64,000 nucleotides of DNA from Bacillota bacterium (lineage in GTDB: Bacteria > Bacillota > JAAYKD01): NCBI GenBank assembly GCA_963666425.2, contig OY762825.2, forward strand, positions 832,001-896,000, given 5' to 3'. The translations under genes were made by a program, and so were the position numbers. This document shows, in pieces, positions 3,954-63,260 of the stretch (position 1 is its first letter; the number at the start of each line of letters is the position of its first letter). The notes under the pieces were generated by a model. It did no database searches. It was given only the letters and a program-made list of their open reading frames with translations, and was not told the DNA's origin.

Positions 3954-4446
3954 GTCGCCGGATTAACAGTTGTCTATTCTTGAACCCCTTGTGGGATTTG
4001 GATTGTTTTAAAAAAACTGCTGTTCCTCTGTCACATAGATAAAATTATACAAGCTCCAAAGAATCCTTTTAGGCAACCTGTTAGCAAGAACCCTCTCTCG
4101 AACATTGGAATGCTTCGATTGAATCAACCGATACCGATTGCGGTTGATATTATCGCGCTTGCTTGTTCAGTCCGTGCGTCTTGCGCACGATAGGTAATTG
4201 CACAACGATTGTTTACTATAGATTGTCTGGAGCTTTTTCCTATATCTAATATACCTCTGCCAATGTAATTTCAAAAGGTGAAAATGTATAGTTTAAGCAG
4301 GGAGTTTGTATGGTTTTGGGATAGTGAGAAGTTTAGTTTTCAATATTGGCTTTTACGACAATCTCTTTCCATAAGACCGTAGTTTATGGTTGAATACAAT
4401 TCATATAAACACCGAATTTCGATAAAAAAATACAACAAAATTACAT

Positions 4447-4570: not shown

Positions 4571-7500
4571 CTATGCGTAATAGATAGCCATTTGTAAATC
4601 AAATGTGTTTGTAAACCCTTGGCCGACTAATACTGCACTCATGGTGGCAGGATCAAAATAAGCCAGATCTATCCTAAGTAACGCTGAATTGTTAGTTAAC
4701 AAGTCATATATAGTACTTTCTGTGGCGGCATTGATTGCAGCTAACGCTATTTCAGCGGTCGGTGCATTGGTTACTGCCTCGTTGAAAGCAGTGTGCAATG
4801 CTGCGAGACTATAGTACCCACTTATAAAATTTGGTTGGGATACTAAATAACCATGAACTATTTCCTGTTGCGCTGGTGATAATGAAGCATAAGCTGTTAA
4901 ATCCAGTCCCAATGCAGCTGCATTGTCAGTGATTACCATTGCAATCGTATCCATCCCGGCAATGTTGAACGGGTCTATGAATGTGATTGTGAGGTCATAT
5001 AAGATTGCATCAAGTGCTAATTGTAAATCATAGGAGTTTGTAAATATCTGCGCATCCAGTGCTGTATTAATAGTGAGCGGATCGCCATAAAGAGTATAAC
5101 TATCGAGATTTATCCCAAGCAGAACTGCATTATTAGCTAAAATCCCACTTATCGTGTCCACGGTGGCAGTATTAATTTCAGCTAACACGATTAAAGCCGC
5201 CGGCGCGTTGAGCACTGCCGCAGCTAACGCTGCTTGTACTTGTGCGGCATTTGCATAATAAACTCCCACAGTTGTTGGTAACAGCAGGTACCCATTTACT
5301 ATTAGTTGCTCCTCCGGTGATAATAAATTGTAAAACGTTAAATCCAGAGCCAAAGCGGATGCACTGGCTTCAAGTGCAGCACCCATAGTATCCACTGTAG
5401 CATAATTGATTGGGTCAAGTATAGCCGATGCTAAAGCAAGATCAAAAGCGCCCCTAATATCTGCTAATATGGTGAATGTCGGAGCGTAAATTATTGCTTG
5501 CTGGACTTGGTATTGCTGATCTAGAGTCAGGAGTTTGTATGCTGTCAGATTCAACCCGATGGCATCTCCGAACTGAAGTATAAATCCGGGTATGTATGTC
5601 ATTGTTCGTCCCAGATTGAAGTTATTTAGAATATTCGCTTCGTTTGTCACAGTAACAAAACATGATGCAGTAATACTGCCGTCAACTGTTGTTACAGTTA
5701 CGGTTGAGATTCCCATGCCTACCCCGGTGATGACACCATTGACCACGGTTACAGGGTTCAAAGAACCCGCTGCCGACCAAGATACATTCTTGTTTGGTGC
5801 GTCGTTTGGCAAAACTGTTGCAATCAGTGTATCGGTCATTCCAAGCAGCACTGATGTTGTTGTTTTATTCAGCGTAACAATTAAAATATTTATAATGTAC
5901 GTCGTAGTCTTTCCACCGACAGTAATCGTCAGTGTCTGGCCAATAAGCGGCGTTGTGCTATCGAAGCCGGTTATATTCGCCGCTGTAATTGTCTCAACCC
6001 TTGTGCTGTTATCACTATATGTACCGATGACAACAAGACCTGTTAGGCTGAGCACATCACCAGCTTTGTAGGTGGTTTTTGTTGCAGGTGTTGTGATGAC
6101 GATGCTAACTAATGTCGCTGGGTTTGTAGTGAAGGTCAAGGTTGTATCCAGACTAGCCGGATATCCATTCATAAAATCCTCAGCGTAACGAACGAGCAGC
6201 GTATGGTTTCCATTGAAGTCTAGGGCATTAAATGCAATGTCTGGACCAAAGAAACCATTGTACATCACGTATCCATTTCCATCATAGTTATATTCCATCG
6301 CAGACGTCATGCCTGTGACTGTATTTGTGACATCATCATTTGTCACCGCTGGTCCAGGTCTTGCCGGATTAGTAGTAAAAGTTAAGGTCGTCACCAAACT
6401 GGCTGGAATAGCCTCAACTGCCGCATAACGAACGAGCAGTATATGGTTTCCATTGAAGTCCAAGCTGCCAAAACTAAAACTAAACATCTCGTACATCACA
6501 TAACCGGTTCCGTCATAATTGTATTCCATTCCGACAGCCATTCCTGCGACTGTGTTTGCAACATCATCATTAGTCACCAGCGGTGCTGGTGGGGCTACTG
6601 GGTTTGTTGTAAAGATTAACGTTGCGACTGGCCCGGTTGGGTCTGAAATTAATCTTACCAATATGGTATGTTCTCCGCTTAAGTCCAATGCATCAAAAAT
6701 GCTTGCATCATATGGAACATACCCTACACCATCTAGGTTGTATTCCATGGCCGTCGTCATACCTGTGACAGTGTTTGCTGTATCATCTCTGGTAACAGCT
6801 GGCCCAGGGTTAGCAGTAAAGGTCAATATTGTATCGATACTAGGCAAAGACCAATTCATGCCATCCGCCCAGTAGCGCACGAGCAGTGTATGATCTCCGT
6901 TGAAGTCCAGATTCCCCCATGCAGGTCCAAACGGATCGTATACCACATAGGATGCTCCGTCATAACTATACTCCATTGCAGTTGTCATACCTGTGACAAT
7001 GTTTGCAACATCATCTCTTGTTACAGATGGTCCAGGTCTTTGAGTGAAAATCAATGTCGTAACCGGCCCTGTTGGGTCTGCAACATACCTAACCAGGAGT
7101 GTATGTGCGCCTTCAAAATTGAGGCTACCAAAGATAAAGTTCCCCTCATCGTACTGAACGTAGGTTGCTCCGTCAAAACTGTATTCCATTGCTGTCGTCA
7201 TTCCACTTACCATGTCTGTAACGTCATTATTTGTTACCGGTGGCCCGGGGTTAGTAGTAAAGGTTAATGTTGTGTCAGCACTTGGCGGATTAATTCCTTC
7301 TGCGGCTACTCTTACAAGTAAAGTGTGCTCTCCACTGAAGTCTATCAAGCCAAATGAGGTTGAATCATATGCTACATAACCAGGTGCTGCATCTAACTTG
7401 TATTCCATTGCTGTTGACATGCTGCTTACTGTGTTTGCAATATCGTCCATTGTTACGGATGGTGCTGGGGGAATTACAGGTATTGATGCGATTACAATGT

Positions 7501-12076: not shown

Positions 12077-13171
12077 CTAGCTATACACTTTATTCCTGTA
12101 TTCGTTGATTGTCATGCCAGTTGATTTTTTAAAAAGCTTTTTAAAATATTCATCATCCTTATAACCAAGTCTTTCTGAAATTTCGATATATTTTATGCCG
12201 CTTAAAATTAGCACCTTTGCACGTTCTATTTTTACATCAGTTATGTATTTAACAAGATTCATACCCGTTTTTTCTTTAAAAATCTGACTTATATATGTTC
12301 TTGTGATGAAAAGCCTAGACGATATTTCATTGACTGTGATATCATTATCGATATTTTCCAATATCGTTTTACAAACCATTCTGACCATGCTGCTATTATC
12401 AATACCTAGCTCATATTGACGAATTATTGAAAGAATTGTATCGACTTTGCTCACGAAGGCTTCTTTCATCAGCGAAATATCATCAAGCATTGAAAAGTCG
12501 CTCACTTTAAGTTCCTGAATATTATAAAACTTGTCTATCCACGAGAACTCAGTATAAATCGACTCAATTAGTTTCTTAGTCGATCGGTTGAGAGCAAGGG
12601 CCGTTTTGATAACATCAAAATTGATTTCCGAGTAAGTGCGGTCAACTAAATATGAAGCTGCCTCCGAGGCTTCCTGGTTGCCTTCACTAACTAAGCGCAG
12701 AACATTATCCATTTCTTCCTTAGGAAAAAATTCCTCGGAGTTTTCATGGAGTATTTTATCAAGGTAAGTGATTTTTGATACTTCAAGGCGCCGCTCACCG
12801 ATATATTTTTCGGCACGCAGAAGAGTTTTCAAAAGCTCTTCTGCGTTGACGGGTTTAAGCAAATATTCAAAAGCACCATTGGATAAGCCCTGTCGTGCGT
12901 ACTCAAAGTCACTGAATTGACTCATTAATATAACACATAGAGCGAGCTTATCTTCTGTGACTTTTTTAAGTAGCTCTAGTCCGTTTACAAGTGGCATACG
13001 TATATCCGTCAAAAGAAGGTCAACCGGGTTTTGATGTAGCTTTTGAAGAGCCTCTCGTCCGTTTGTAGCCTCTTCGACGATGACAAAGCCTGATGTCGCT
13101 CCCCATACCTTCATTGATCTGATTTCATTCCGGTAAACTTCGTAATCATCGACAATCATTGCATTGTACAT
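12077..13171 (-). CDS. Response regulator, REC plus AraC HTH (YesN-like)
   Basis: IVDD, LLTDIRMP and YLLKP receiver motifs; C-terminal YISQIFKEKTG...LGYKDDEYFKKLFKK. Confidence 0.92.
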   Translation of the reverse strand: MYNAMIVDDYEVYRNEIRSMKVWGATSGFVIVEEATNGREALQKLHQNPVDLLLTDIRMPLVNGLELLKKVTEDKLALCVILMSQFSDFEYARQGLSNGAFEYLLKPVNAEELLKTLLRAEKYIGERRLEVSKITYLDKILHENSEEFFPKEEMDNVLRLVSEGNQEASEAASYLVDRTYSEINFDVIKTALALNRSTKKLIESIYTEFSWIDKFYNIQELKVSDFSMLDDISLMKEAFVSKVDTILSIIRQYELGIDNSSMVRMVCKTILENIDNDITVNEISSRLFITRTYISQIFKEKTGMNLVKYITDVKIERAKVLILSGIKYIEISERLGYKDDEYFKKLFKKSTGMTINEYRNKVYS

Positions 13172-17001: not shown

Positions 17002-17898
17002 TCAGGCGCTCTTTTTCAATAGGACTGGCTGGTAAACTTTTGCAGGAGCTTGGTAGTCCAAGGCGGAGTGCAAGCGCTCGTAATTGTAGGTATAGATAAA
17101 AGCAGCTATTTGTTGCCTGGCTTCTTTTATGTTGAGATACTCTTTCAGATAAACCTCTTCATACTTCAGCGTGCGGAACCAACGTTCTATTAAAATATTG
17201 TCTGCCCAGCGGCCTTTACCATCCATGCTGATCTGAATCTGGTTGGCTTTTAGAAAGTCGGTGTAATCATGACTGGTAAATTGGCTGCCTTGATCCGAGT
17301 TCAATACCTTCGGTTTCCCCATGGCCAGGGCTTTCTCTACTGCACGTAAAACCATTGGTGTTGCTAAGGTATCATCTAGTTCCCAGCCCACAATACAACG
17401 ACTGTGCCAGTCAATGATTGCAGTCAAGTAAATAAAGCCATGCTTCAAGCGTATATAGGTGATATCAATAGACCAAGCTTGATTGATTCGATTTATCTGC
17501 GCGTTTTTCAGTAAATAGGGGTAAATTTCGTGACCCTTTACGGGTTTTGAGAGATCCGGCTTGGGGTAAATCACTCGAATTCCTATTTCTTCCATGTAGC
17601 GTCTGGTTTTGAGCCGGCCAACCAGTAAGTTACGATCTTTTAATTGTTTGGATAGCTGACGGGAACCCCATGTTGGATTCTTGGTATGGATCTCATCGAT
17701 GATCCGTTTCGCTTGCAGTTCTATTTCGCTTGGTCTGGCAGATATCCAATAGATTGAGGTCCGATTGACCTCAAGCAACTGGGCCATTGTCTGGATCGTC
17801 AGGTTCCCTTTTCCAGACTCAGCTTTTTGGGCGCGGAGTAAATTGACTTTCCCATTCAGGTCCAAGCAGCTGTTCAGATTTTTTTTTGAGCCAGTCAA
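17002..17898 (-). CDS. IS3 transposase OrfB (DDE integrase core)
   Basis: WSIDITYI, NSDQGSQF, DNILIERWFRTLKYE. Confidence 0.92.
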   Translation of the reverse strand: MTGSKKNLNSCLDLNGKVNLLRAQKAESGKGNLTIQTMAQLLEVNRTSIYWISARPSEIELQAKRIIDEIHTKNPTWGSRQLSKQLKDRNLLVGRLKTRRYMEEIGIRVIYPKPDLSKPVKGHEIYPYLLKNAQINRINQAWSIDITYIRLKHGFIYLTAIIDWHSRCIVGWELDDTLATPMVLRAVEKALAMGKPKVLNSDQGSQFTSHDYTDFLKANQIQISMDGKGRWADNILIERWFRTLKYEEVYLKEYLNIKEARQQIAAFIYTYNYERLHSALDYQAPAKVYQPVLLKKSA

Positions 17899-18157
17899 CC
17901 TGTGTGGTTAGCTGACCGATCTTCTTGTATAGCTCTTCTGTCTCCTGATGCTTGCTTTGTAATTCGCATCTAAGTTCTTCGGTCCGTTTATCTTCAAATG
18001 CAGCCGTTGCGTTTTTTAGAAACTCTGCTTTCCAATTGCGTATTTGGTTCGGGGCGAGCTCGTTTTCAGTGGCGATGATATTCAGTTCTTTTTCACCACG
18101 GAGCACTTCCAAGATGATCTTTGTCTTATACTCGGCACTAAAGGTTCTTCTCTTCAT
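17819..18157 (-). CDS. IS3 transposase OrfA (HTH)
   Basis: RRTFSAEYKTKIILEVL...QIRNWK...IGQLTTQVDWLKKK. Confidence 0.92.
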   Translation of the reverse strand: MKRRTFSAEYKTKIILEVLRGEKELNIIATENELAPNQIRNWKAEFLKNATAAFEDKRTEELRCELQSKHQETEELYKKIGQLTTQVDWLKKKSEQLLGPEWESQFTPRPKS

Positions 18158-18567: not shown

Positions 18568-18596
18568 TTGACTATTTAGATTAAATTATGTATAAT
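18568..18596 (+). promoter_or_regulatory. Near-consensus sigma-A promoter of the RiPP locus
   Basis: TTGACT, 17 bp, TATAAT. Confidence 0.75.
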
Positions 18597-18851: not shown

Positions 18852-20558
18852 TTGATTAAGTTGAACAGGATATTACAAAACAGTATATTCATGTTAAATT
18901 ACATAAAGAAGCACTGCAGAAAATTCATGATTATAGCTTTTTCCCTGGCACTGGTTTCAAGTATTGTTTCTATTGTATCGATCATTTTCATAAGAGTAGC
19001 ATTAAATGATGTGATTTCGAATAAATCAATGCGGACGCTAATTATTATCCTTATTGCGAATTTTTCCGTTTCACTCCTCGCGGCACACCTCACATCGGTT
19101 AGTAATAACATCGTTATTCCCATAGCAACTCAGAAATTCCAAGCCAATATGCATAGAGAATTGTATGAGAAAGCAGCAGAAATTGATTTGATTAAGTATG
19201 ATGACCCTATATTCTATAATAAATATATAATGGCACTAAATAATTCTGATTCAAGAGCGTTGTCTGTGTTAAGCACATATACCTCATTATTGACCGCTGT
19301 TATTAATAGTATAGGTATGATTGCATTTATATTATCAATTAATCAAGTTATTATCTTCCTTATTGTTGTTTTGAACGTGTTAATTTCGACGTATTGCAGT
19401 TCAATCTCATCTACTATTTCACATAAATTTAATCTATCTCTAGTTGCCATTCAAAGAAAAACTGCTTATGTGAAAAGAGTTTTTTATTTAAATAATTATG
19501 CATGCGATATACGAACTACTAAAATTACAGAGGTTCTTTTTCGCATTTTGAACGACACTATGCGGTCAACACGTGAATTGACTGAAAAATGGGGATGGAA
19601 AAACTACAGAATCACATTATTTCAACATGTGATACAAGCAATAACTACTTTACTAACAATGCTTTATCTTTCAAAATTATATATCTCTGGCTTTATGCCT
19701 GCTGGCGATTTTGCCGCCGTTTTGAGCAGTGTTAATTTACTTGTCTCTTCACTCAAGAATCTCTTTGCGTCGATTCCTCAGCTTTATGAACATAGCTTAT
19801 ATATCGAGAATTTCAAAGAGTTTTTCCTATACAAGCCCACATATGATTCGATAGAATGCAAAGAAATAGAAGCGATCAAAGTAATAAAGATTGATAACTG
19901 CTCATTTGAGTATGAAGAAGGTAAGTGTATTTTAGAGAATATAAATTTGGAAGTAAACATTAGAGAAAAATTAGGGATAATTGGTCCAAATGGAGTAGGT
20001 AAAACGACATTCATTAAGTTAATTACGGGTCTTTATAAGCCGATAAGCGGGAATATTTTTTTGAATGACATTAATTATTCAAAACTGTCTAAAAATGTTT
20101 TTCTGCAAAATTTCTCGGTGTTTTTTCAAAATTTTGAAATCTATGCTACTAGTATTGCAGAGAATGTTCTAATGAAACCCATTGAGAACTTTGAAACGGA
20201 ATCACTTCTTGTTGAAGATGCATTAAAAAATGTAGGCCTATGGGAAAAAATTAATAAATTTGAAAACGGTATTTTAACCCCCATGCTAAAAGAGTTTGAT
20301 GAAGCAGCCGGTGCTTTTTCAACAGGGGAGTATCAGAGGATTGCACTTGCTCGGATTTTTGTAAAAAAATGCGCATTCGTTATTCTAGATGAACCCTTCA
20401 GCCATATAGATAAGAATTCGGTGGAACTAATTTTGAACAACTTAATTAAGAGAAATCCGGAATGCGGTATTGTAATGGTGACTCATGACAAAGCAAACTT
20501 GATCTCATTTGATAAAGTGTACGACCTTGAAACTAAGACATTAAATTCTTTAATATAA
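18852..20558 (+). CDS. ABC exporter, fused TMD and NBD, with no C39 peptidase domain
   Basis: TM-rich N-half; Walker A GPNGVGKT; signature FSTGEYQRIALAR; Walker B VILDEP; H-loop VTHD. Confidence 0.9.
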   Translation: MIKLNRILQNSIFMLNYIKKHCRKFMIIAFSLALVSSIVSIVSIIFIRVALNDVISNKSMRTLIIILIANFSVSLLAAHLTSVSNNIVIPIATQKFQANMHRELYEKAAEIDLIKYDDPIFYNKYIMALNNSDSRALSVLSTYTSLLTAVINSIGMIAFILSINQVIIFLIVVLNVLISTYCSSISSTISHKFNLSLVAIQRKTAYVKRVFYLNNYACDIRTTKITEVLFRILNDTMRSTRELTEKWGWKNYRITLFQHVIQAITTLLTMLYLSKLYISGFMPAGDFAAVLSSVNLLVSSLKNLFASIPQLYEHSLYIENFKEFFLYKPTYDSIECKEIEAIKVIKIDNCSFEYEEGKCILENINLEVNIREKLGIIGPNGVGKTTFIKLITGLYKPISGNIFLNDINYSKLSKNVFLQNFSVFFQNFEIYATSIAENVLMKPIENFETESLLVEDALKNVGLWEKINKFENGILTPMLKEFDEAAGAFSTGEYQRIALARIFVKKCAFVILDEPFSHIDKNSVELILNNLIKRNPECGIVMVTHDKANLISFDKVYDLETKTLNSLI

Positions 20559-20772
20559 CAGGGTAATTAAGATTTCCCGTTGTACAATTACTTATTAGTG
20601 AGGAGCCTTTAGATTTTCCGGTGTAGCGCACCTATAGAATTTTTGAACCTAACTATTCCTCAATCACAACCGATGTTCATAGCTGTTCGACGACTTGCAG
20701 AGAATTTACTCTTCTAGGAAATTGTTTCTTGAAACAGTATTTTCATATAAAAAATCCAAAAGGAGGAGAAAA

Positions 20773-22068
20773 ATGAAGTTCAGTAATTATCTCACCATGT
20801 TTGAAACCTCGCAGTGCATGATTCTATATAGCACTTTAAGGAGGTGCGCAATTAAGATTTATGATATAGATATTAAAGAGGTTATTCGAAGTTTAAAAAC
20901 TGGAGAAACGATTGACGAATCTTACTTGACAAAGTATTCAGACTTCTTTGAAGATCTAAAAGAGAATAATTTCATAATGGAAGATATTTGCGACGAATCC
21001 GAACTGGTCAATTACTTATATCAAACCTCAGTATCAAAAGATGCATCATTGGAATTGATATTGATTCCTACTCGACAATGCAATTTTCGATGCCCTTATT
21101 GTTATGAAGAGCATGAAGCTAAGGTAATGAGTGAAGAAGTTTATTCTAATATATTGAGTTTCATTAAGAAGTATCTTGAATATAGATCAATAAAAAAAAT
21201 AAGGATTTCTTGGTTTGGAGGGGAGCCGCTGCTTGAACACAAAAAAATCATTGATTTTATGAAAACTTTGAAATCTTTAGTCGAGGACAATTGTTGCATT
21301 GAAGGCAGCATGACAACTAATGGCTATTTGCTCAACGAGGTTCTATTCAATGATCTTGTTTCATGTAATGTTAAAAGTTATCAAATAACGGTTGATGGTT
21401 TAAAGGAGTTCCATAATAAGACAAGATATCTATTAGGCGGACATGGGACTTGGGATAAAATCATGAAAAATCTTTTAAAAGCAAAAAAGACACCTCATGA
21501 TTTTAGAATATTGATTAGGACTAACTATACAGAGGAGTCATTATCGAAATATTTGGAATGGTTAAACATTCTAAAGGAGAGTTTTGGTGATGATAAAAGG
21601 TTTGCATTTTATTGTGAGACGGTAAAAAACCTTGGGGGAAACAACACAGAGTATGCTTATAATAATAAGAAACCTAATCCAATTGGTTATGTACTATCAG
21701 ACATGAAAAACTTAAATTTAAATTCATCGGGTTATGAATATCTGACTAACAACTTTGGTTATATTTGTTATGCTAGTCGGCAAAATTCTTTTGTAATTGA
21801 TTATGATGGAGCTCTAAAGAAATGTACAATTTTACTAGATAATGACAAAAATATTGTTGGAAATATAAGCAATCAGATGGATAATATTGATTTCAAAAAA
21901 ATGGCTTGGTGGACGAGTTATAATCATAAAGAAGCATGTCGATCGTGTTATATATATCCTATTTGTTATGGAAAGAAATGCCCGGCTTCCTATTTTTCCG
22001 AAGATTCATGTAGGTTGTTTAAAGAATATCAGCTTGGGGTCATCAGAAGTGTTGTACAAGAAATGTAA
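20773..22068 (+). CDS. Radical SAM/SPASM peptide maturase with a probable N-terminal RRE
   Basis: CNFRCPYC; WFGGEPLL; TTNGY; QITVDG; SPASM CYAS...DGALKKC...CRSCYIYPICYGKKCP...C; AGGAGG RBS before ATG 20773. Confidence 0.92.
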   Translation: MKFSNYLTMFETSQCMILYSTLRRCAIKIYDIDIKEVIRSLKTGETIDESYLTKYSDFFEDLKENNFIMEDICDESELVNYLYQTSVSKDASLELILIPTRQCNFRCPYCYEEHEAKVMSEEVYSNILSFIKKYLEYRSIKKIRISWFGGEPLLEHKKIIDFMKTLKSLVEDNCCIEGSMTTNGYLLNEVLFNDLVSCNVKSYQITVDGLKEFHNKTRYLLGGHGTWDKIMKNLLKAKKTPHDFRILIRTNYTEESLSKYLEWLNILKESFGDDKRFAFYCETVKNLGGNNTEYAYNNKKPNPIGYVLSDMKNLNLNSSGYEYLTNNFGYICYASRQNSFVIDYDGALKKCTILLDNDKNIVGNISNQMDNIDFKKMAWWTSYNHKEACRSCYIYPICYGKKCPASYFSEDSCRLFKEYQLGVIRSVVQEM

Positions 22069-22100
22069 GTGATTCTGAGGGTTTTTTGTATGACATACTG

Positions 22101-22428
22101 AGCTTCACGAGGCATACATGCAATACCTTAATTAACGAAAGGAGTTTTTTAATTTGAAATCATATGAAATAGTGAATTTGAATAAAAAATATGATATAGC
22201 TCCCCTGTTTTTAGATGTATGTTCCGATGTTTGCCCCAACATGGGGGGGTGTACCGATGTTTGTCCAGATATCGGTTGTGCAACAAACACAGGGTGTAAT
22301 GTGGATACTAGTTGCAACCCGAATGCAGGTTGCGGTGGTGGTTCTGATATGGGTTGTGGTGCTAATAAAATAGTAAGATAAACAGTCTCAAGAATATAGA
22401 TTAGTTGCATGTATGCCTCTGTGGAGTT
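22101..22428 (+). repeat. Inverted repeat pair flanking the precursor ORF
   Basis: GAGGCATACATGCAA (22109-22123) / TTGCATGTATGCCTC (22405-22419), perfect over 15 bp and extendable by 8 pairs with two G:U. Confidence 0.9.
22154..22381 (+). CDS. Cys-rich RiPP precursor peptide (75 aa, 9 Cys)
   Basis: AAAGGAG RBS and TTG start; Cys-free leader of ~20 aa; core with repeated DVC and [D/N]xxC motifs; directly downstream of the rSAM/SPASM gene. Confidence 0.8.
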   Translation: MKSYEIVNLNKKYDIAPLFLDVCSDVCPNMGGCTDVCPDIGCATNTGCNVDTSCNPNAGCGGGSDMGCGANKIVR

Positions 22429-22559
22429 AATTAATTAACGAGGGGTTAAGAGTTATCCTATTGGGAAACTCTCAAAATTCGGAGATTTATATAGACTGAA
22501 AGGTATCTGGTACAGCCCTAATGATTTGCTGAACATTATTATTAATGGGGGGTAATAGT

Positions 22560-23789
22560 ATGAAAAAAGTAATGATAGTAATCATATTAATAGTTGCGGC
22601 ACTAACATTCGATATATATAAACCGTATCTATATCAAAAGCTGAATTACAATAAACTAATAACACTTGATAAGCCATCGGCGCACTCCGATATTGATTAT
22701 CTATGGTATCATTTAGAAGATGAGTATCCATATTTAAACACTGCTTTTGAAAACAAAGGTAAAGTGGATTATCACAGTTACTTAAATGACGGAATAACAG
22801 ATGCTTCCGATTTTTCGTTCAATACATATACGCAATACTTACTTAAAATCCCTAATGATCTCAGATATAGAGGTGATTTTACTCTTGTCTTTCCAAAACT
22901 GTACTATTATTTTCATGAGAACTGGACAAGAGCAAAATACGCTTCAAAACAAATACAGAATAACTACAATGAGTTGATTAAGAATGTTTCTTGTGACACA
23001 TATAATATTTTAAAACAATCAGAGGTGAGTCAATTAGATTATGGTGTACCATCTGACAGTATGAAAAGTTTCACTACTGAGGAGATTAGTGCAGATATTG
23101 CTTACTTGAAAATTGAGAATGGATCAAGTACCCGAATAGATAAAGATCGAGAAGCGTTAACGGACTTCTTTAAGTCCATTCATGGAAAAGATTACCTGAT
23201 AATAGATCTTCCCGAATCAAACATTTATTCGTCAGAATATTTTATAGAGAATATTATTTCACCTAACCTTCCTGTCGATTACAGTTTCAGCAGCTATGCT
23301 TTATACACAGAGGATGGTTATAAAAAAAGGGAGGCTGAAGATGCATTTGTGGGTATGCAAACGGGTTCGGTCGATGAAATAGCCGAATTGACAAATCAGA
23401 TTAATGTAGATGATTTAGCGCGTCTAAAATACTATACGAAATCCAATCATTTTATAGAAGCTATAAACGATAAACCTTTGTTTAATGGAGAGATTATTCT
23501 ATTGACAGATGCCTATATTTATGGTGTAGGTGAATATCTGACAATGATCGCAGAAAAAAGTGGCTTTTCCACCTTGGTTGGTAAACCAACACATGGTAAA
23601 GGTGTTATTGGTGATATGGATATCAGTGTACTTTCTCTTCCGAAAAGCGGTATAGTTTTTACTTATCAATTAAAATACGACTTATGGGAAGATGGATCAA
23701 CTTTAGTAACCCCCATTTCACCGGATTTTCTTGCATTGGATCAAGAATCACCACTTGAAGCAAGTATGAGATATATAAAAGAGAAGTAG
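22560..23789 (+). CDS. Membrane-anchored S41 (tail-specific) peptidase-like protein with a degenerate active site
   Basis: N-terminal TM; IAYLKI, LIIDL, F.GEIILLTD, TLVGKPTHG motifs, but YGVGE where xSAxE is expected. Confidence 0.7.
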   Translation: MKKVMIVIILIVAALTFDIYKPYLYQKLNYNKLITLDKPSAHSDIDYLWYHLEDEYPYLNTAFENKGKVDYHSYLNDGITDASDFSFNTYTQYLLKIPNDLRYRGDFTLVFPKLYYYFHENWTRAKYASKQIQNNYNELIKNVSCDTYNILKQSEVSQLDYGVPSDSMKSFTTEEISADIAYLKIENGSSTRIDKDREALTDFFKSIHGKDYLIIDLPESNIYSSEYFIENIISPNLPVDYSFSSYALYTEDGYKKREAEDAFVGMQTGSVDEIAELTNQINVDDLARLKYYTKSNHFIEAINDKPLFNGEIILLTDAYIYGVGEYLTMIAEKSGFSTLVGKPTHGKGVIGDMDISVLSLPKSGIVFTYQLKYDLWEDGSTLVTPISPDFLALDQESPLEASMRYIKEK

Positions 23790-23815
23790 ACGTTTACAGT
23801 TAATCTGAATCCATT

Positions 23816-24262
23816 TTGCAAAGAATGTTAGCAACATTCGCCAAAGGCGTATCAAAATTTGTTCCTATACTTGGCGGAGTTATCTCTGGCGGTCTCACGC
23901 TGGCAATGTTTAAGATGATGGCACACATGCTCAAGAAGCATCTCTCAACAATGGCTCATATGTCGCCGGAAGAGTTTGCCGAGTACGAAGCCGCTATTGT
24001 CTTTGATGCGAAAGACTCAGACACAGATGGCGAGATTGTTGAAGTAGTGATTGATGAGGTTGCGACAAACTATTGGGTTTGTACTTGTGGTGCGGAGAAC
24101 AAAGGTAAATTCTGCCCTGAGTGTGGCAAAGCAAAGCCCATCGGGATACCGCAATACAAATGTAACAAGTACGATAGGGAACCGGATGATAAGACTCACC
24201 CACCAAAGTTCTGTCCAGAATGTGGCGACCCATTTGATGACGGCGATATAGTATTGGTATAA
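23816..24262 (+). pseudogene. 5'-truncated gene fragment ending in double zinc-ribbon motifs
   Basis: No RBS; WVCTCGAENKGKFCPECG and PPKFCPECGDPFDD; one CxxC decayed (CNKY). Confidence 0.55.
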
Positions 24263-24553
24263 CATAATTAGCAAACATTATAAGCAAACCGGTAGCTCTC
24301 CAATTACTATTAGTTGCCCACTATGTTTATAAACCATAACGAACGTAATACAAACATTCTGAAATAAAAACTCCTCTTCACAAGAAGGGAAATCAGTGAT
24401 GATGAGCTTTTATTTCCAAGCCTTATACCTGTATAACTGTGTCATTCTTAAAGGTGAACCATACATTATCTTTGACTGTTCGTATTTTTGTGTAAAATAT
24501 AAATAGTAATCAAAACAAGAGCAAAGTTTTTTAAATATAGAGGAGCCAGAATT

Positions 24554-25285
24554 TTGAACAATCTTTTTTCACATAGTGCCATAAAAGCTGAGGGCAAAGA
24601 ACACTTGAAGCAACATTTCTCATCGGCAGTTCTGTTTCTATTACTGACCTTAACGGTATCGCTTGTAGCCAGTCGAGTTTTGGGTGTCTTGTTTTCCACC
24701 AGAGGACCGGCTATTGATTGGCAGTCGATGACAACACATCAAATCGTAATCAAAACTAGAGAGCTGATATTCACCACTCATAATTTGCTTCGTATGTTGG
24801 TAGAAAACCTGGTTACAGCGGCAGTAGCGTTAGCTAAGGTCTGCTTTTACCTCAATGTTGCTCGGTCAACGGACAAAATCACCCTTATTAATCCCTTAAT
24901 TTACGGGTTCAAACACTCGTTCAAAGCCTATCTTCTTGATTTTTTAATGGGTATTGTTGTCGGTATTGGCGTTGTCTTGTTGATTATTCCCGGCATTATT
25001 TGGGGAATTCAATACATGTTTGCTTTTCTTGTATTGGCAGATCATCCGGAATATTCGGTCATGCAAGCCTTTCAGCGCAGTGCTGAACTAACCAAGGGTA
25101 AAAAAATGCATCTTTTTAAGTTCATTCTGAGCTTTTTCCCGTGGTTACTATTAGTTGCCGTTACTTTCGGGTTGGCCATTCTTTATGTAGGACCATACTA
25201 TAGCACTTCCGTAGCAGTATATTATAATCGATTAGTCTATGACGCGGAGGGTGTCTTGCCCGAACCCCCTGGTGAAATTCTTTAA
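24554..25285 (+). CDS. DUF975-like integral membrane protein
   Basis: LLIIPGIIW...Y.FAFLVLADHPE...AFQRSAELTKGKKMHLF...PYY; AGAGGAG RBS. Confidence 0.8.
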   Translation: MNNLFSHSAIKAEGKEHLKQHFSSAVLFLLLTLTVSLVASRVLGVLFSTRGPAIDWQSMTTHQIVIKTRELIFTTHNLLRMLVENLVTAAVALAKVCFYLNVARSTDKITLINPLIYGFKHSFKAYLLDFLMGIVVGIGVVLLIIPGIIWGIQYMFAFLVLADHPEYSVMQAFQRSAELTKGKKMHLFKFILSFFPWLLLVAVTFGLAILYVGPYYSTSVAVYYNRLVYDAEGVLPEPPGEIL

Positions 25286-25298
25286 CAGAATAATAAAA

Positions 25299-25972
25299 AG
25301 ACTAACTATTAAAAGTCAATCCCCAAAATGGAAAAAAACTGTGGATAGGCCGCCGCCCTATGACAAGCAGCAGCCAAATGCTGCGGAAAGATCAGCGAGG
25401 GCGACGGAGGCAATAAATTACCAGACCCAGCCCCCTTGAGCTTTCCAGCCTAGCATTTGGCTGCTTCTGCTTGTCAAGGGTTCGCTGCGCCGGCTGAGGT
25501 GTACAAGTTGTCGGCGAAGGCTCAAAAGGCAATTATGCCGCTCTTCGGTAACCTTCACCGGATTTCTGCATTGCGTAGATTAAGCGTACCAATTTCTTGG
25601 CTGCATGAGAAATAGCGACATTGTAGTGCTTCCCTTCGGCTCGTTTCTTTGCCAGATATGCGGCGAAGATTGGATCCCAGATACAGACATACTTTGCGGC
25701 ATTAAACAGAGCAAAACGGAGATATCGGGAACCGCGTTTCTCCATATGCGAATGGCTGTTATCCATCTTGCCGGATTGGTATGTGGATGGAGACAGGCCT
25801 GCAAATGCAAGAATCTTGTCCGGAGAATCGAACTTGGCAAAGTCTCCAATCTCGGCAAGAATCATTGCTCCCATACGAGTACCCATGCCTGGAATGGTAG
25901 TAATTGGAGAATGGAGTGCCTGCATAAGCTCGTCAATCTGAGCTTCAATCTCGTCAATTTCAGAGTCCAGTT
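25299..25972 (-). mobile_element. IS110-family remnant: C-terminal transposase half and non-coding right end
   Basis: TIPGMG...ILAEIGD...F....I.AFAGL.PS.YQSG......KRGSRYLR..LF; RuvC-like N-half missing; outward-facing TTGACT near the terminus. Confidence 0.85.
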
Positions 25973-27689: not shown

Positions 27690-28028
27690 ATTGTTTTCCC
27701 TCCTTGAAATAATATCGCATTAATAATTCTCTGTGCTGTAAGCCATTGCTGAATGGACCTATCTAATTCAGTTTCACCGGCTTCGGTAATGTGGTAATAT
27801 TTTCGCCTGCCTCCCTGGGATTCTTCCCCCCCAATAACTTTTAATTAGATTGTCTTTCTCAAGTCGTTTTAGGCTCGTATAAAGCGATGGTTCATTTTCC
27901 TTATCGCCTTTTTGCGATATTGATTTGATTATTTCGTAGCCGTAGTTATCACCGTCACGCAAAACCGTCAATATGATTGTATCTATATGGCCTCGGATTA
28001 AGTCGCTGCTAATACTGTCAATGGGCAT
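27690..28028 (-). pseudogene. Second, damaged padR copy
   Basis: Near-identical to 2812-3154 but with a 9-bp deletion (EYELKEP to ENEP) and one extra base in the C-run (C6 to C7 at ~27826-27832). Confidence 0.9.
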
Positions 28029-28289
28029 TACAATCACTCCTCCTTCCAACTGTATTGTATAACATATTACTATGTGTGTCAATGTAATATTGCAAAAATA
28101 GGAGCTGTAGCAAAAACAGAAAATTGCTACAGCTCCACCAGGGTGCGCGTATTCGACCAGCATTCCTACAAAAAATCCAGTACAATCAATGGTTCGAGTC
28201 TGTCGGGTCCAAATAAATGTGAAAATTCCCCGGTGAATACCAGAGAAACATACAGCGTTTATGCCACGAAGGTTGTTTCTGTTGAGGGA

Positions 28290-51912: not shown

Positions 51913-53049
51913 CTAATTATGGAACAACGTCTTATTGCTGCGCATGGCCACCGAAGTGACAATACCCAAACCCCATAAAACAGCCATTAAGTTCGAGCTG
52001 GCATAACTCATCAAAGGCCAAGGGATACCGGTGACCGGCATCACGCCCAAGGTCATACCAACATTAACCAGCAAATGAAACAACAGCATGCTGCCGATTC
52101 CGGCGCAAATCAGTTTTCCATAGCGGTCCTCAGCATGAAACCCAATATAAAAGATGCGGTAAATCAAGATCAGATAGAGGACAATCATCAGGCTGGCTCC
52201 GACAAAGCCAAATTCTTCTGCCAAGGATGAAAAAATCATATCGGATTGTTTTTCCGGTAAAAACTCCAATTGTGTCTGTGTGCCCTGTAAAAAGCCCTTG
52301 CCCCAAAGCCGCCCGGAACCGATTGCGATGATGGATTGAATCAATTGCCAGGTATATTTGGCGTAAGCCGAATTCGTTTTGTAATATTCCAGATTGGTAA
52401 AAATCAGCAGACGCACTTTTTGATACTCTTCCAAATGACCCCATAAGAGCGGGACTGCCGCGCAGCCGGCTGTGATCACACCCACGATATAGCGCCAATC
52501 GAGCCCAGCCACAAAAACCATGCCCAGCCAAATCGCCAATAAAACCAAACCGGAGCCAAGGTCCGGCTGCAGCAACACCAAACCCAAAGGAACCATCACC
52601 AGCAAAAGCAATGGCACCAGACAACGAATCGATTTTAAGCGATCCTCATCGACCAAAAGCTTTGCCAAAGTCAGACTCAGCATGATTTTTGCTAACTCGA
52701 CCGGCTGCAAACTCAAAGGACCTAACGGAATCCAAGACTGTCCGCCATAATTCCCTACCCGACCGAGAAACAAGACGAAAATTAAAAGACCGATCATGAT
52801 CCCATAAACCCAGCGGCTGAAAACATTCCAGATCGAATAATCCACCAATGCGCTCACCAAAAAAAGGACCGTTCCCAAAAACATAGCCAGCAGATGACGA
52901 ATGATATAGTAATAAGGCTGGTCTTCTACCAAATCACGGCTGGCGCTGTAAATCACAAAGCTGCTGACAATCAGGAAAATGATCATGATCCCAATCAGCT
53001 GCCAATCTGCATTTTTCAATATTCGTCGATCGAAATGAAAGAAATTCAT
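51913..53049 (-). CDS. rodA: Rod shape-determining SEDS protein
   Basis: QPVELAK, QPDLG, QS..AIGSG, PVTGIP; located in the mre operon. Confidence 0.9.
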   Translation of the reverse strand: MNFFHFDRRILKNADWQLIGIMIIFLIVSSFVIYSASRDLVEDQPYYYIIRHLLAMFLGTVLFLVSALVDYSIWNVFSRWVYGIMIGLLIFVLFLGRVGNYGGQSWIPLGPLSLQPVELAKIMLSLTLAKLLVDEDRLKSIRCLVPLLLLVMVPLGLVLLQPDLGSGLVLLAIWLGMVFVAGLDWRYIVGVITAGCAAVPLLWGHLEEYQKVRLLIFTNLEYYKTNSAYAKYTWQLIQSIIAIGSGRLWGKGFLQGTQTQLEFLPEKQSDMIFSSLAEEFGFVGASLMIVLYLILIYRIFYIGFHAEDRYGKLICAGIGSMLLFHLLVNVGMTLGVMPVTGIPWPLMSYASSNLMAVLWGLGIVTSVAMRSNKTLFHN

Positions 53050-61214: not shown

Positions 61215-63260
61215 ATGCAGCCGATCACAATAGCAGATATCTTAGCGGTGAAATATCTGATCGGAGCGCCGCTCTGGTCAGACGACGGCAATTATCTGAT
61301 TTACCGATGGAACGATGGTGGAATTCATGATCTTTGGTGTCTAAAACCAGCCGCCAAAACGCCGCCGCTGCAGATTACTCAGGCCAAAACAGGTGTCTCA
61401 GCCCTACTCTGGCGTCCGGGCACACATCAAGTAGCCCTGGTCATGGACGCTTCGCTTTATCTTTTGGAGATTGACTCACCGCAGAAGATGCGGCGGCTGA
61501 CCTATGAAGGAGGCATCATGAGCCGTCTGGCCTTTAGTCCGGATGGCAAGTGGCTGAGCTTTACCAACGGGAAAACGCTCTCTTTTCTCAATTTAGAAAA
61601 CGAGACACGTCATGACATCAAACCACTGGGAGAGGTGCACGGCGGCCGCTTCAGTCAAACTGTTTCCGGTGACGCTTTCGCTTGGAATCCAGCCGGAGAT
61701 TTGTTCCTTTATACTTGGGTCGATGCCAGGAAGAAACCATGGCTGGCTCTTTGTACTCCGGAAGAAGGCAACATCTGGCGTTCTGCCGGTCATACGGAAC
61801 AGATCAGCAGCGCCCAATGGCTGACTTCTGATCAACTGATCTATGTGCTCAGTGCGCCGTTCGGCGCCGCCTACACCTATTATCGTATGACGGTTCCCAA
61901 GCGTGCTGATTGGCAGGATTATTCCGATCTTGGTATCGTTTCTCGCTTTTCACCGCAGCTGGAAGTCATCCTGCAGCAGGAAGACAAAGAAAAAAGCTGC
62001 AGCTTTCAGCACATGGCCGTTGTCCAACCCGGCGGCCGCGCCATCCTGTTTGCTTTGGAAAACGATGGTTATTATCATCATTATCTCTATACAACAGCCG
62101 AACACCGCTTAGAGCAACTCACCTTCGGTGAGTGCGAAGACAGCGGACAATCCGGCGAACAGGCAGTCTGGTCAGCGGACGGTCAGCGTTTCTTATATGC
62201 CAGCAACCGAAATGACCGCCTGCAGCGACAGATTTGGTGCTACGATTTGGCTGCCCGCCGGCAGACATCACTGACCAGCACAGCAACCAGCAATGTCTCA
62301 CCTTTTTATGCGCCGGATGGACAAAGCTTTGTTTACAGCCACAGCGATCAACAAAACAATGCCGATCTTTGGCTTTACGATTTCGTCAGTCAAAGCAGCC
62401 GTCCATTGACCGATTCTATGCCGACCGGCTTGCGGGAGAAGCTGGTTTGCGCTCAGCCCATCCACTATACCAGCGCAGAAGATTGGCAGATCGACGGTTT
62501 TCTTTATCAGCCGCTGGATTTTGATCCCACCAAAAAATATCCGGCCATTGTCTGGCTGCACGGCGGTCCGGCGCGCCAAATGCGCGGCGCCTGGCATCCT
62601 TCCGGTACCTATGCTCATTTTTATGCGTTCAATCAATATTTGGCAGGACAGGGTTATATCGTGCTTTCGATCAATTACCGGGGCGGCATTGGCTACGGCC
62701 GCGCATTCCGACATGGACTCTGGCATCAAAAAGGCCTGCATGATACCCTTGATGTGATCAATGGCGGCAAATTTCTGCAGTCTCTGCCCTATATAGAGCA
62801 AGAAAAAGTAGCCGTCTATGGCCTAAGCTATGGCGGCTACCTCACGCTGCTGGCGATGACCCAATATCCCGATGTATTCGCCTGCGGGATCAATCTGGCA
62901 GGGTTATGGGATCTGGGTATCAAAGATCGCTGGATGGAAGAAAAATACGGTAATTATCACGGTGATATCTATCTCGGCGGAGCGATGGAAGCAAATCCAG
63001 CCATGTGGGCGAAAGCTTCTCCCAACACCTATCGAGCCAACCTTACTAAACCGCTGCTCAGCCTGCAAGGCACAGCAGATCTCAATGTAACGATCGAACA
63101 TCAAAATCAACTGGTCAAGGACTGCGTGGCACTCGGGCGCGGTGCAGCGTTCGAAGCGGTTTATTATCCCGGCGAGAGCCATACCTTCCGCTATCGTCAG
63201 ACCTGGCAGGATGCATTTCCGCGCATGGCAGCCTTTTTCAAGCAACATCTGCAAGACTAG
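61215..63260 (+). CDS. S9 family peptidase, tandem paralog
   Basis: Colinear with the upstream gene; LHGGP, GLSYGG, QGTAD, ESH. Confidence 0.93.
   Translation: MQPITIADILAVKYLIGAPLWSDDGNYLIYRWNDGGIHDLWCLKPAAKTPPLQITQAKTGVSALLWRPGTHQVALVMDASLYLLEIDSPQKMRRLTYEGGIMSRLAFSPDGKWLSFTNGKTLSFLNLENETRHDIKPLGEVHGGRFSQTVSGDAFAWNPAGDLFLYTWVDARKKPWLALCTPEEGNIWRSAGHTEQISSAQWLTSDQLIYVLSAPFGAAYTYYRMTVPKRADWQDYSDLGIVSRFSPQLEVILQQEDKEKSCSFQHMAVVQPGGRAILFALENDGYYHHYLYTTAEHRLEQLTFGECEDSGQSGEQAVWSADGQRFLYASNRNDRLQRQIWCYDLAARRQTSLTSTATSNVSPFYAPDGQSFVYSHSDQQNNADLWLYDFVSQSSRPLTDSMPTGLREKLVCAQPIHYTSAEDWQIDGFLYQPLDFDPTKKYPAIVWLHGGPARQMRGAWHPSGTYAHFYAFNQYLAGQGYIVLSINYRGGIGYGRAFRHGLWHQKGLHDTLDVINGGKFLQSLPYIEQEKVAVYGLSYGGYLTLLAMTQYPDVFACGINLAGLWDLGIKDRWMEEKYGNYHGDIYLGGAMEANPAMWAKASPNTYRANLTKPLLSLQGTADLNVTIEHQNQLVKDCVALGRGAAFEAVYYPGESHTFRYRQTWQDAFPRMAAFFKQHLQD

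Follow-up and report, generated by a model that had tools for sequence, protein, structure and literature searches.

An inverted repeat around the precursor gene of a radical-SAM peptide cluster and its possible role as an mRNA clamp

Introduction

In the hbs mRNA of Bacillus subtilis, the two untranslated regions (UTRs), 5′ and 3′, interact over 14 base pairs (bp) just upstream of the terminator; the report describing this interaction gives compensatory mutants as its proof and a restriction of RNase Y cleavage as its effect (Braun, Durand & Condon 2017, PMC5737220). Long-range intramolecular pairing that acts in vivo across several hundred nucleotides (nt) has been described for B. subtilis mRNAs (PMC12697547), and the 3′-UTR of the icaR mRNA of Staphylococcus aureus is described as pairing with its 5′-UTR (PMC3868564). 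Here, we describe an inverted repeat that brackets the precursor gene of a peptide-maturation operon in a Bacillota bacterium (assembly GCA_963666425.2, contig OY762825.2, positions 832,001–896,000 of the forward strand). This stretch of 64,000 nt is referred to as the window, and all coordinates are those of the window unless stated otherwise.

Pathways for ribosomally synthesized and post-translationally modified peptides (RiPPs) need far more precursor than enzyme, and many of their clusters are single operons. Separate promoters, leaky terminators and local processing sites are already known as solutions. For mccA, a terminator and a ribosome-stabilised short transcript are described as raising the precursor over the enzyme (PMC4231749), and the as-48ABC mRNA is described as being processed endonucleolytically into parts of differing half-life (Fernandez et al. 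2008, as cited in PMC3942455). An earlier sequence-only reading of the window knew of no long-range stem in a RiPP cluster; likewise, our full-text literature search, whose coverage left out most subscription journals, found no report of such a stem around the precursor gene of a RiPP or bacteriocin. Clamps between 5′- and 3′-UTRs are known for few bacterial mRNAs, and their setting in a RiPP operon appears to be new.

The operon in the window consists, in order, of genes for an ATP-binding cassette (ABC) exporter, a radical S-adenosylmethionine (SAM)/SPASM maturase, the precursor and an S41 peptidase. Our analysis suggests, with a probability of roughly one half, that the arms of the repeat pair in the sense-strand mRNA as a 5′/3′-UTR clamp that shields the precursor message, like that of hbs.

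The inverted repeat and its predicted helix

The left core arm, GAGGCATACATGCAA (22109–22123, + strand), is the exact reverse complement of the right core arm, TTGCATGTATGCCTC (22405–22419, + strand), with 281 nt separating the two. A repeat search recovered this perfect 15-nt match, which the sequence-only reading had pointed out, and its continuation past a single bulged nucleotide, U22420, also holds as claimed there. Beyond the bulge, the outer left arm AGCTTCAC (22101–22108, + strand) pairs with 22421–22428, which together with the bulge make up GTGGAGTT (22420–22428, + strand). The eight outer pairs are C22108-G22421, A22107-U22422, C22106-G22423, U22105·G22424, U22104-A22425, C22103-G22426, G22102·U22427 and A22101-U22428. 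Six are Watson-Crick pairs, and both DNA mismatches (22105/22424 and 22102/22427) prove to be G:U wobbles on the sense strand, again in agreement with the earlier reading. The helix in the window comprises 23 pairs plus a U·G closing pair.

The precursor open reading frame (ORF; 22154–22381, + strand) lies between the arms. It starts with TTG, ends with the stop codon at 22379–22381 and encodes 75 residues with 9 cysteines and a leader beginning MKSYEIV. Its Shine-Dalgarno (SD) sequence, AAGGAG (22139–22144, + strand), is located 9 nt 5′ of the TTG start at 22154. The left arm ends 15 nt 5′ of the SD sequence, and the right arm starts 23 nt 3′ of the stop codon.

The minimum-energy fold of 22090–22440 contains the whole helix of 15 and 8 pairs (−110.8 kcal/mol, z −5.1), and none of 100 shuffled sequences folded as well. 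The probabilities of the individual core pairs are 0.97–1.0. Across folding contexts of 328–1601 nt, the core pair probability is 0.995, and that of the outer eight pairs is 0.92–0.97. RNA of the opposite (−) strand forms only 15 and 3 pairs, compared to 15 and 8 on the + strand, and an antisense-strand RNA structure was rejected on this basis. The two wobbles are a weak argument for RNA pairing on their own, because two transitions would both fall on one strand by chance in 1/4 of cases.

The inverted repeat is confirmed to be real and non-random. Each arm occurs once in the 3.2-Mb assembly, where the only other matches are 7 sites with 2 mismatches. Contig C1 (2.9 Mb) contains 58 perfect inverted repeats that are 15 nt or longer and spaced 50–600 nt apart, compared to 0, 2 and 2 in three shuffled versions; by our reading of the listing, 49 of them belong to one palindromic family, 4 to a second family, and 5 are singletons that include the pair bracketing the precursor gene. 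The duplex energy of the intergenic flanks is −49.9 kcal/mol, compared to −29.8 ± 3.9 kcal/mol for dinucleotide shuffles, none of which (0/1000) reaches the observed value.

The palindromic family consists of arrays of a 26–27-nt unit, GTAGGGAACGGTCTTGACCGTTCCGC, and its variant GGAATGGTC, in both orientations and at an irregular spacing of 50–600 nt. These arrays lie outside the window (C1 92292–94620, 526443–527477, 546985–548331, 560375–560958 and 2071798–2072967). The second family is built on TGTGCCAAGGGGACGGGGGTGTTGGCACA (C1 51944/52555, 61382/61966, 797370/797471 and 1593333/1593467), whose copies enclose whole genes, such as those for a 123-residue membrane protein (52002–52373) and a 160-residue ORF (61524–62006).

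An 11-nt direct repeat, TTAATTAACGA, stands 3′ of each arm. The first copy (22128–22138, + strand) leads into the precursor SD sequence, and the second (22431–22441, + strand) is followed by GGGG with no credible ORF behind it. A dispersed repeat, a miniature inverted-repeat transposable element (MITE) or an insertion sequence (IS) with terminal inverted repeats was considered and rejected, as the arms are unique and the sequences outside them differ. The direct repeat does not form a MITE target-site duplication, because it lies inward of the left arm and outward of the right arm. A known RNA family was likewise rejected: the 4 matches of an Rfam scan of 20000–25000 are weak, fall well short of the gathering score and lie away from the arms.

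Natural variants of the helix

To compare the helix among near-identical variants from metagenomes, we used Logan contigs of three DNA runs from three studies (X4, X5 and X10) and a metagenome contig (L084) that is ∼99% identical to the window over most of the ∼4.1 kb aligned. The Logan contigs of a further run from a fourth study, X13, gave no alignment to the stretch. The core arms are unchanged wherever they are covered, the right arm in all four sources and the left arm in X4, X5 and L084 (X10 has no left-arm coverage).

The outer right arm is variable, with a T>A change at 22422 in X4, X5, X10 and L084, and an A>C change at 22425 in X5. These are two of only four substitutions in 264 intergenic nt. 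Two window pairs, 22107:22422 and 22104:22425, are broken by these changes, and in the variants the outer pairs of the window register fall to probabilities of 0.1 and 0. The outer left arm is instead predicted to pair with 22420–22425 in a register shifted by one base. In the intermediate haplotype (22422 T>A), C22108 bulges and 22103–22107 pair with 22420–22424, giving five pairs with a probability of ∼0.45. The X5 haplotype adds G22102-C22425 as a sixth outer pair, with a probability of 0.97–0.99. The two variant haplotypes thus keep 20 and 21 pairs, compared to 23 in the window. The duplex formed by the arms has an energy of −39.5 kcal/mol in the window, −35.3 kcal/mol in the intermediate haplotype and −38.9 kcal/mol in X5.

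Both observed steps away from the intermediate haplotype rank among the most stabilising changes available, third and fourth of the 267 possible single substitutions in the arm region, only 6 of which stabilise the duplex by at least 3 kcal/mol. Wherever the chain of three haplotypes is rooted, it includes at least one step that regains about 3.6–4.2 kcal/mol. Three non-Watson-Crick oppositions are found across the haplotypes (22105·22424, 22102·22427 and 22104·22423), and all are G:U on the sense strand only.

The same contigs bear on a DNA inversion switch, in which recombination between the arms would flip the precursor gene and turn production on or off. Inverted repeats of 15–24 bp around a segment of ∼300 bp, as found here, have a geometry similar to that of invertons. 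All sources that span a junction show one orientation, at both junctions in L084, X5 and X4 (the last on two contigs) and at the right junction in X10; no joint that changes strand was seen, although contigs cannot show rare flipped forms. Among 16 neighbouring ORFs scanned (4.5–40 kb), none encodes a serine or tyrosine recombinase, and only DDE and IS110-type transposases are present. The outer-arm bulge, the G·T mismatches and the register shift would also be irrelevant for a recombination site. An inversion switch is, therefore, very unlikely.

The variants also show mosaic junctions. The likeness of X5 to the window starts at 22079, behind 28 unrelated letters, which implies that the precursor unit can sit behind a different neighbour. 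X4 and X10 resemble the window from 21703 onward, a position within the maturase gene, and X4 contains a strongly diverged stretch (∼22611–22754) at the start of the S41 peptidase gene.

Homologous precursor clusters

The precursor family is rare. An index of 5.8 billion proteins yielded one homologue of the window precursor, P0001 (74 residues, 93% identical), and a profile yielded three, P0001 and two proteins of genome G401. Searches of relatives were negative for the DNA of 22069–22560 (60 relatives), for the precursor (the 9 other genomes of the class) and for the maturase at E≤1e-70 (400 genomes sampled from the phylum). The precursor profile found nothing in 400 sampled genomes of the order of G401 or in 3 further genomes, nor in 386 scored genomes of the family of genome G802 (15 unscored). 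The window precursor has no plasmid match, and a search of viral contigs gave distant maturases only.

Homologous precursors flanked by arms of unrelated sequence were found in one distant genome only, G401. A scan of genome contigs gave maturases of at most 38% identity among the matches listed, and the best locus among them is that of G401 (L004, maturase 38% identical). It carries two precursor cassettes, whose products are 39–43% identical to the window precursor. The first directly follows the maturase gene, and the second, a paralogue, follows the next gene, which encodes an ABC transporter. In copy 1, ATATTGATAAAATGATA (4307–4323 of the locus), which starts 2 nt after the maturase stop codon, pairs at 16 of 17 positions with 4807–4823 (26/1000 shuffles as good). 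In copy 2, a left arm identical to that of copy 1 overlaps the stop codon of the ABC gene and has 14 perfect pairs downstream (1/600 shuffles as good). The likeness between the two cassettes starts at the left arm. The pair probabilities of these brackets are 0.83–1.0, and both right arms are located 3 nt before a strong hairpin, followed in copy 1 by a T-run. The G401 arms are unrelated in sequence to those of the window and occupy the same positions around the precursor gene.

Seven plasmid records of Clostridium tetani contain a homologous cluster of S41 peptidase, ABC, radical-SAM and YEIV-leader precursor genes, the precursor again being homologous to that of the window. The cluster adjoins an IS200/IS605 element, and its precursor is annotated only as hypothetical; one example is L089 (NZ_CP115449.1, 26249–33526). 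Among the three independent lineages of the precursor family, the bracket is present in two and absent in one. The flanking inverted repeats that the sequence-only reading proposed to look for around homologous precursors are found in both G401 cassettes and not, at a significant level, in C. tetani, and no classical covariation is seen.

Two other long repeats, of 19 nt in L052 and 21 nt in L038, were rejected as precursor brackets. In L052, a metagenome-assembled genome of Bacteroidaceae, the perfect 19-nt inverted repeat (2279–2297/2414–2432) surrounds 116 non-coding nt, ∼150 nt upstream of a GG-leader precursor (2583–2750) and its radical-SAM maturase. It looks like a candidate invertible promoter.

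Organization of the cluster

The cluster starts with the ABC exporter gene (18852–20558, + strand; PF00005 ABC_tran, 1.5e-25). Upstream of it is a promoter-like TTGACT-17-TATAAT (18568–18596), which is a consensus match only. The radical-SAM/SPASM peptide maturase gene (20773–22068, + strand; PF04055 and PF13353) is given here in its 431-residue form; the ORF list has its start at 20695, and homologues, some at 40–55% identity, are 431 residues long. Its best NCBIfam matches are maturases of Cys-rich peptides, all under their cut-offs, with TIGR04463 as the best (183.8 bits, under the cut-off of 525). The S41-family peptidase gene (22561–23789, + strand; PF03572, 1.9e-7) more likely starts at ATG 22561, with GGGGGG 7 nt upstream, than at the ORF-list start of 22545. 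The cluster is flanked by an IS3 pair (17002–18157) and an IS110 fragment (25533–25925).

A possible extended −10 element, TGACATACT (22091–22099, + strand), is read from the sequence just 5′ of the left arm. This element and the X5 junction at 22079 suggest that the precursor may also have its own promoter, which would place the core arm right at the transcript's 5′ end. They also bear on another explanation, in which the arms would be a pair of protein-binding operators, perhaps acting by DNA looping, that control the precursor gene: the left arm lies at this possible promoter, and each arm contains a 4+4 palindrome, GCAT-NN-ATGC. The palindrome adds nothing beyond the repeat, because an inverted copy of any sequence that contains a palindrome repeats it. 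The cluster contains no regulator gene, the nearest being PadR-like (27774–28163) and an AraC-type response regulator (12077–13171). Strand-specific G:U pairs and a register shift would be meaningless for a protein site, and we consider operators unlikely.

Inside the left arm, GAGG stands 5 nt before a mini-ORF (22118–22135; ATG CAA TAC CTT AAT TAA) that has 5 codons, ends 3 nt before the precursor SD sequence and would be buried on helix formation. The precursor gene (228 nt) differs between the window and L084 by 4 substitutions, all nonsynonymous (D25N, V26A, G41S and T44P) with none synonymous, and by the deletion of one Gly codon. These differences (22226–22283 of the window, 2207–2262 of L084) look like diversifying change in the core peptide.

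Assessment of the RNA-level interpretation

Pairing at the RNA level is the best supported interpretation, because the G:U pairs are found on the sense strand only, the variants shift the register of the outer helix, a bracket is present in G401, and the genome encodes RNases III, Y and J. A number of observations weigh against it. No classical compensatory pair is present among the variants; the constancy of the core arms is uninformative, because the variants are ∼99% identical; and the register-shift pattern calls for caution, having been recognised post hoc. No RNA run is on record among the 19 listed. The SD sequence is predicted to be partly paired with CCUU at 22126–22129 (unpaired probability 0.25), and to be mostly paired inside the clamp. 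No terminator-like site was found between 22382 and 22560, where AAUUAAUUAACGAGG follows the right arm; hbs and G401 differ in this respect. A local intrinsic terminator or attenuator at the end of the precursor gene was rejected.

The homologues add further points of this kind. The two G401 cassettes count as one lineage, because they are paralogues; their helices are AU-only (−14.7 kcal/mol), and the single mismatch in copy 1 is A·C on the sense strand. The C. tetani cluster has no significant bracket, showing AU-rich complementarity that 69/600 shuffles equal, and no long-range pair above a probability of 0.4 in two larger contexts. Beside distant maturases, none of 36 small Cys-rich ORFs, which belong to other precursor families, reached z < −3, and ten hand-picked candidate precursors gave nothing significant (16–97/100 shuffles as good). 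This test of distant clusters was crude, as large internal loops are allowed when the duplex energy is computed over long flanks.

These points leave room for the main rival explanation, in which the repeat is a neutral relic at the DNA level. It would stem from an inverted duplication or template switch, or mark the edge of a precursor cassette that was duplicated or moved, with no function in RNA or DNA. From the window through L084 to X5, the substitutions bring a local DNA palindrome closer to perfection step by step (GCCTC-T-GTGGA to GAGGA to GAGGC), in our reading the signature of templated mutation, and template switching could mimic the register shift without selection. The position of the cluster between IS elements, its mosaic nature between strains (X4 and X10 from 21703, X5 from 22079), the 11-nt direct repeat 3′ of both arms and the C. 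tetani homologue without a bracket also fit a relic, and ∼1–2 repeats of such length are expected by chance per genome. However, the extension by eight pairs past the bulge makes chance unlikely (∼5e-3 given the 15-mer, by our own estimate rather than a computed value). Neutral decay should erode the pairing, yet 20–23 bp are kept in three haplotypes. The mosaic breakpoints (21703, 22079 and ∼22624) are not at the arm ends, and an unrelated sequence fills the same role of arm in G401. We consider a relic less likely than RNA pairing.

The claim of the sequence-only reading that selection acts on RNA pairing is, thus, borne out in part. The strand asymmetry of the G:U pairs, the variants and the G401 bracket support it, and the C. 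tetani lineage, which lacks a significant bracket, does not.

Proposed function of the helix

If the arms pair in the sense mRNA, a helix of 21–24 bp would close a loop of ∼281 nt that contains the precursor ORF in full together with its ribosome-binding site. Given the size of their footprint, initiating and terminating ribosomes would probably not need to melt the helix, because the arms stop 15 nt before the SD sequence and resume 23 nt after the stop codon. Such a clamp could shield the precursor mRNA from RNase Y entry in the leader, from RNase J at the 5′ end and from 3′ exonucleases, and the precursor mRNA would then outlast the enzyme mRNA of the same operon. Helix formation in vivo, the altered stability, the protection and the excess of precursor message are all inferred. 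Pairing of the SD sequence inside the clamp could cause some translational damping, to which we attach little weight.

The genome encodes a decay set of the B. subtilis type, namely RNase III (TIGR02191, 204.2 bits, cut-off 166.25), RNase Y (765 bits) and RNase J (two genes, 610 and 476 bits). A typical RNase III substrate is ∼20 bp long or longer, which is about two helical turns. The helices of the window (23 pairs) and of the variants (20 and 21) reach this length, and those of G401 have 14–17 pairs only. RNase III excision is possible in the window strain, where a cut would yield a monocistronic mRNA of ∼300 nt with both ends still paired. A protective interaction of the hbs type fits the family better than a stalk of the rRNA type, because the 14–17 AU-rich pairs of G401 are too short for RNase III. 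At the family level, the hbs-type model is therefore the more economical one, with RNase III excision an optional extra in the window strain.

In a wider sense, an mRNA helix that brackets the precursor gene could be a recurrent, selected design in radical-SAM clusters for Cys-rich peptides, and perhaps widely among RiPPs. A separately stabilised, possibly RNase III-excised message within a polycistronic transcript would set the ratio of substrate to enzyme post-transcriptionally, and the arm sequences would drift while their pairing is kept, as the window, its register-shifted variants and G401 illustrate. This generalization is doubtful at present and is offered tentatively.

If the mRNA clamp is real, it would add a portable solution to the supply of precursor and would account for the way in which a precursor gene that stands third in its operon could still be over-expressed. 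A bracket of this kind would give genome miners a mark of precursor genes that is independent of sequence, and engineers a simple module with which to adjust the supply of precursor. The clamp would also add, from another functional context, a second natural case to the very few proven 5′/3′-UTR interactions in bacterial mRNAs.

Comparison with known systems

The hbs mRNA, as described, is the closest parallel. In both cases a small ORF lies between complementary stretches of the 5′- and 3′-UTRs (14 nt in hbs, 15 and 8 in the window, 14–17 in G401), RNases Y and J are present in the host, and nuclease access is what the pairing is proposed to control. An interaction of the hbs type calls for at least ∼14 nt of contiguous sense-strand complementarity flanking one ORF, and the window has 15 perfect pairs followed by 8 more. 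The window helix is longer and more GC-rich than that of hbs and is known here from sequence alone. The 3′ arm stands just upstream of a terminator in hbs and G401, whereas no terminator follows the right arm in the window. Furthermore, hbs is a monocistronic housekeeping mRNA, whereas the window precursor is the third gene of an operon.

The stalks formed by the leaders and trailers of 16S and 23S rRNA precursors, and those of phage early mRNAs, are RNase III processing sites. The window resembles the rRNA stalks in that the flanks of the RNA to be released pair over hundreds of nt in a duplex of at least 20 bp, and in that RNase III is encoded. It differs in that the enclosed RNA is a translated mRNA, and the G401 helices are shorter than typical substrates.

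The icaR mRNA shares with the window an intramolecular duplex between 5′- and 3′-UTRs in a Firmicute mRNA. Its 3′-UTR reportedly masks the SD sequence and represses translation, with a link to RNase III. The window arms lie outside the SD sequence, unlike those of icaR, and for this reason they are expected to protect rather than to repress.

With the mccA and as-48 systems, as they are described, the proposed clamp shares the outcome that the precursor message is more abundant or longer-lived than the enzyme message of the same operon. There, a local terminator or processing site follows a precursor gene that stands first in its operon, whereas here a long-range helix would serve a precursor gene that stands third.

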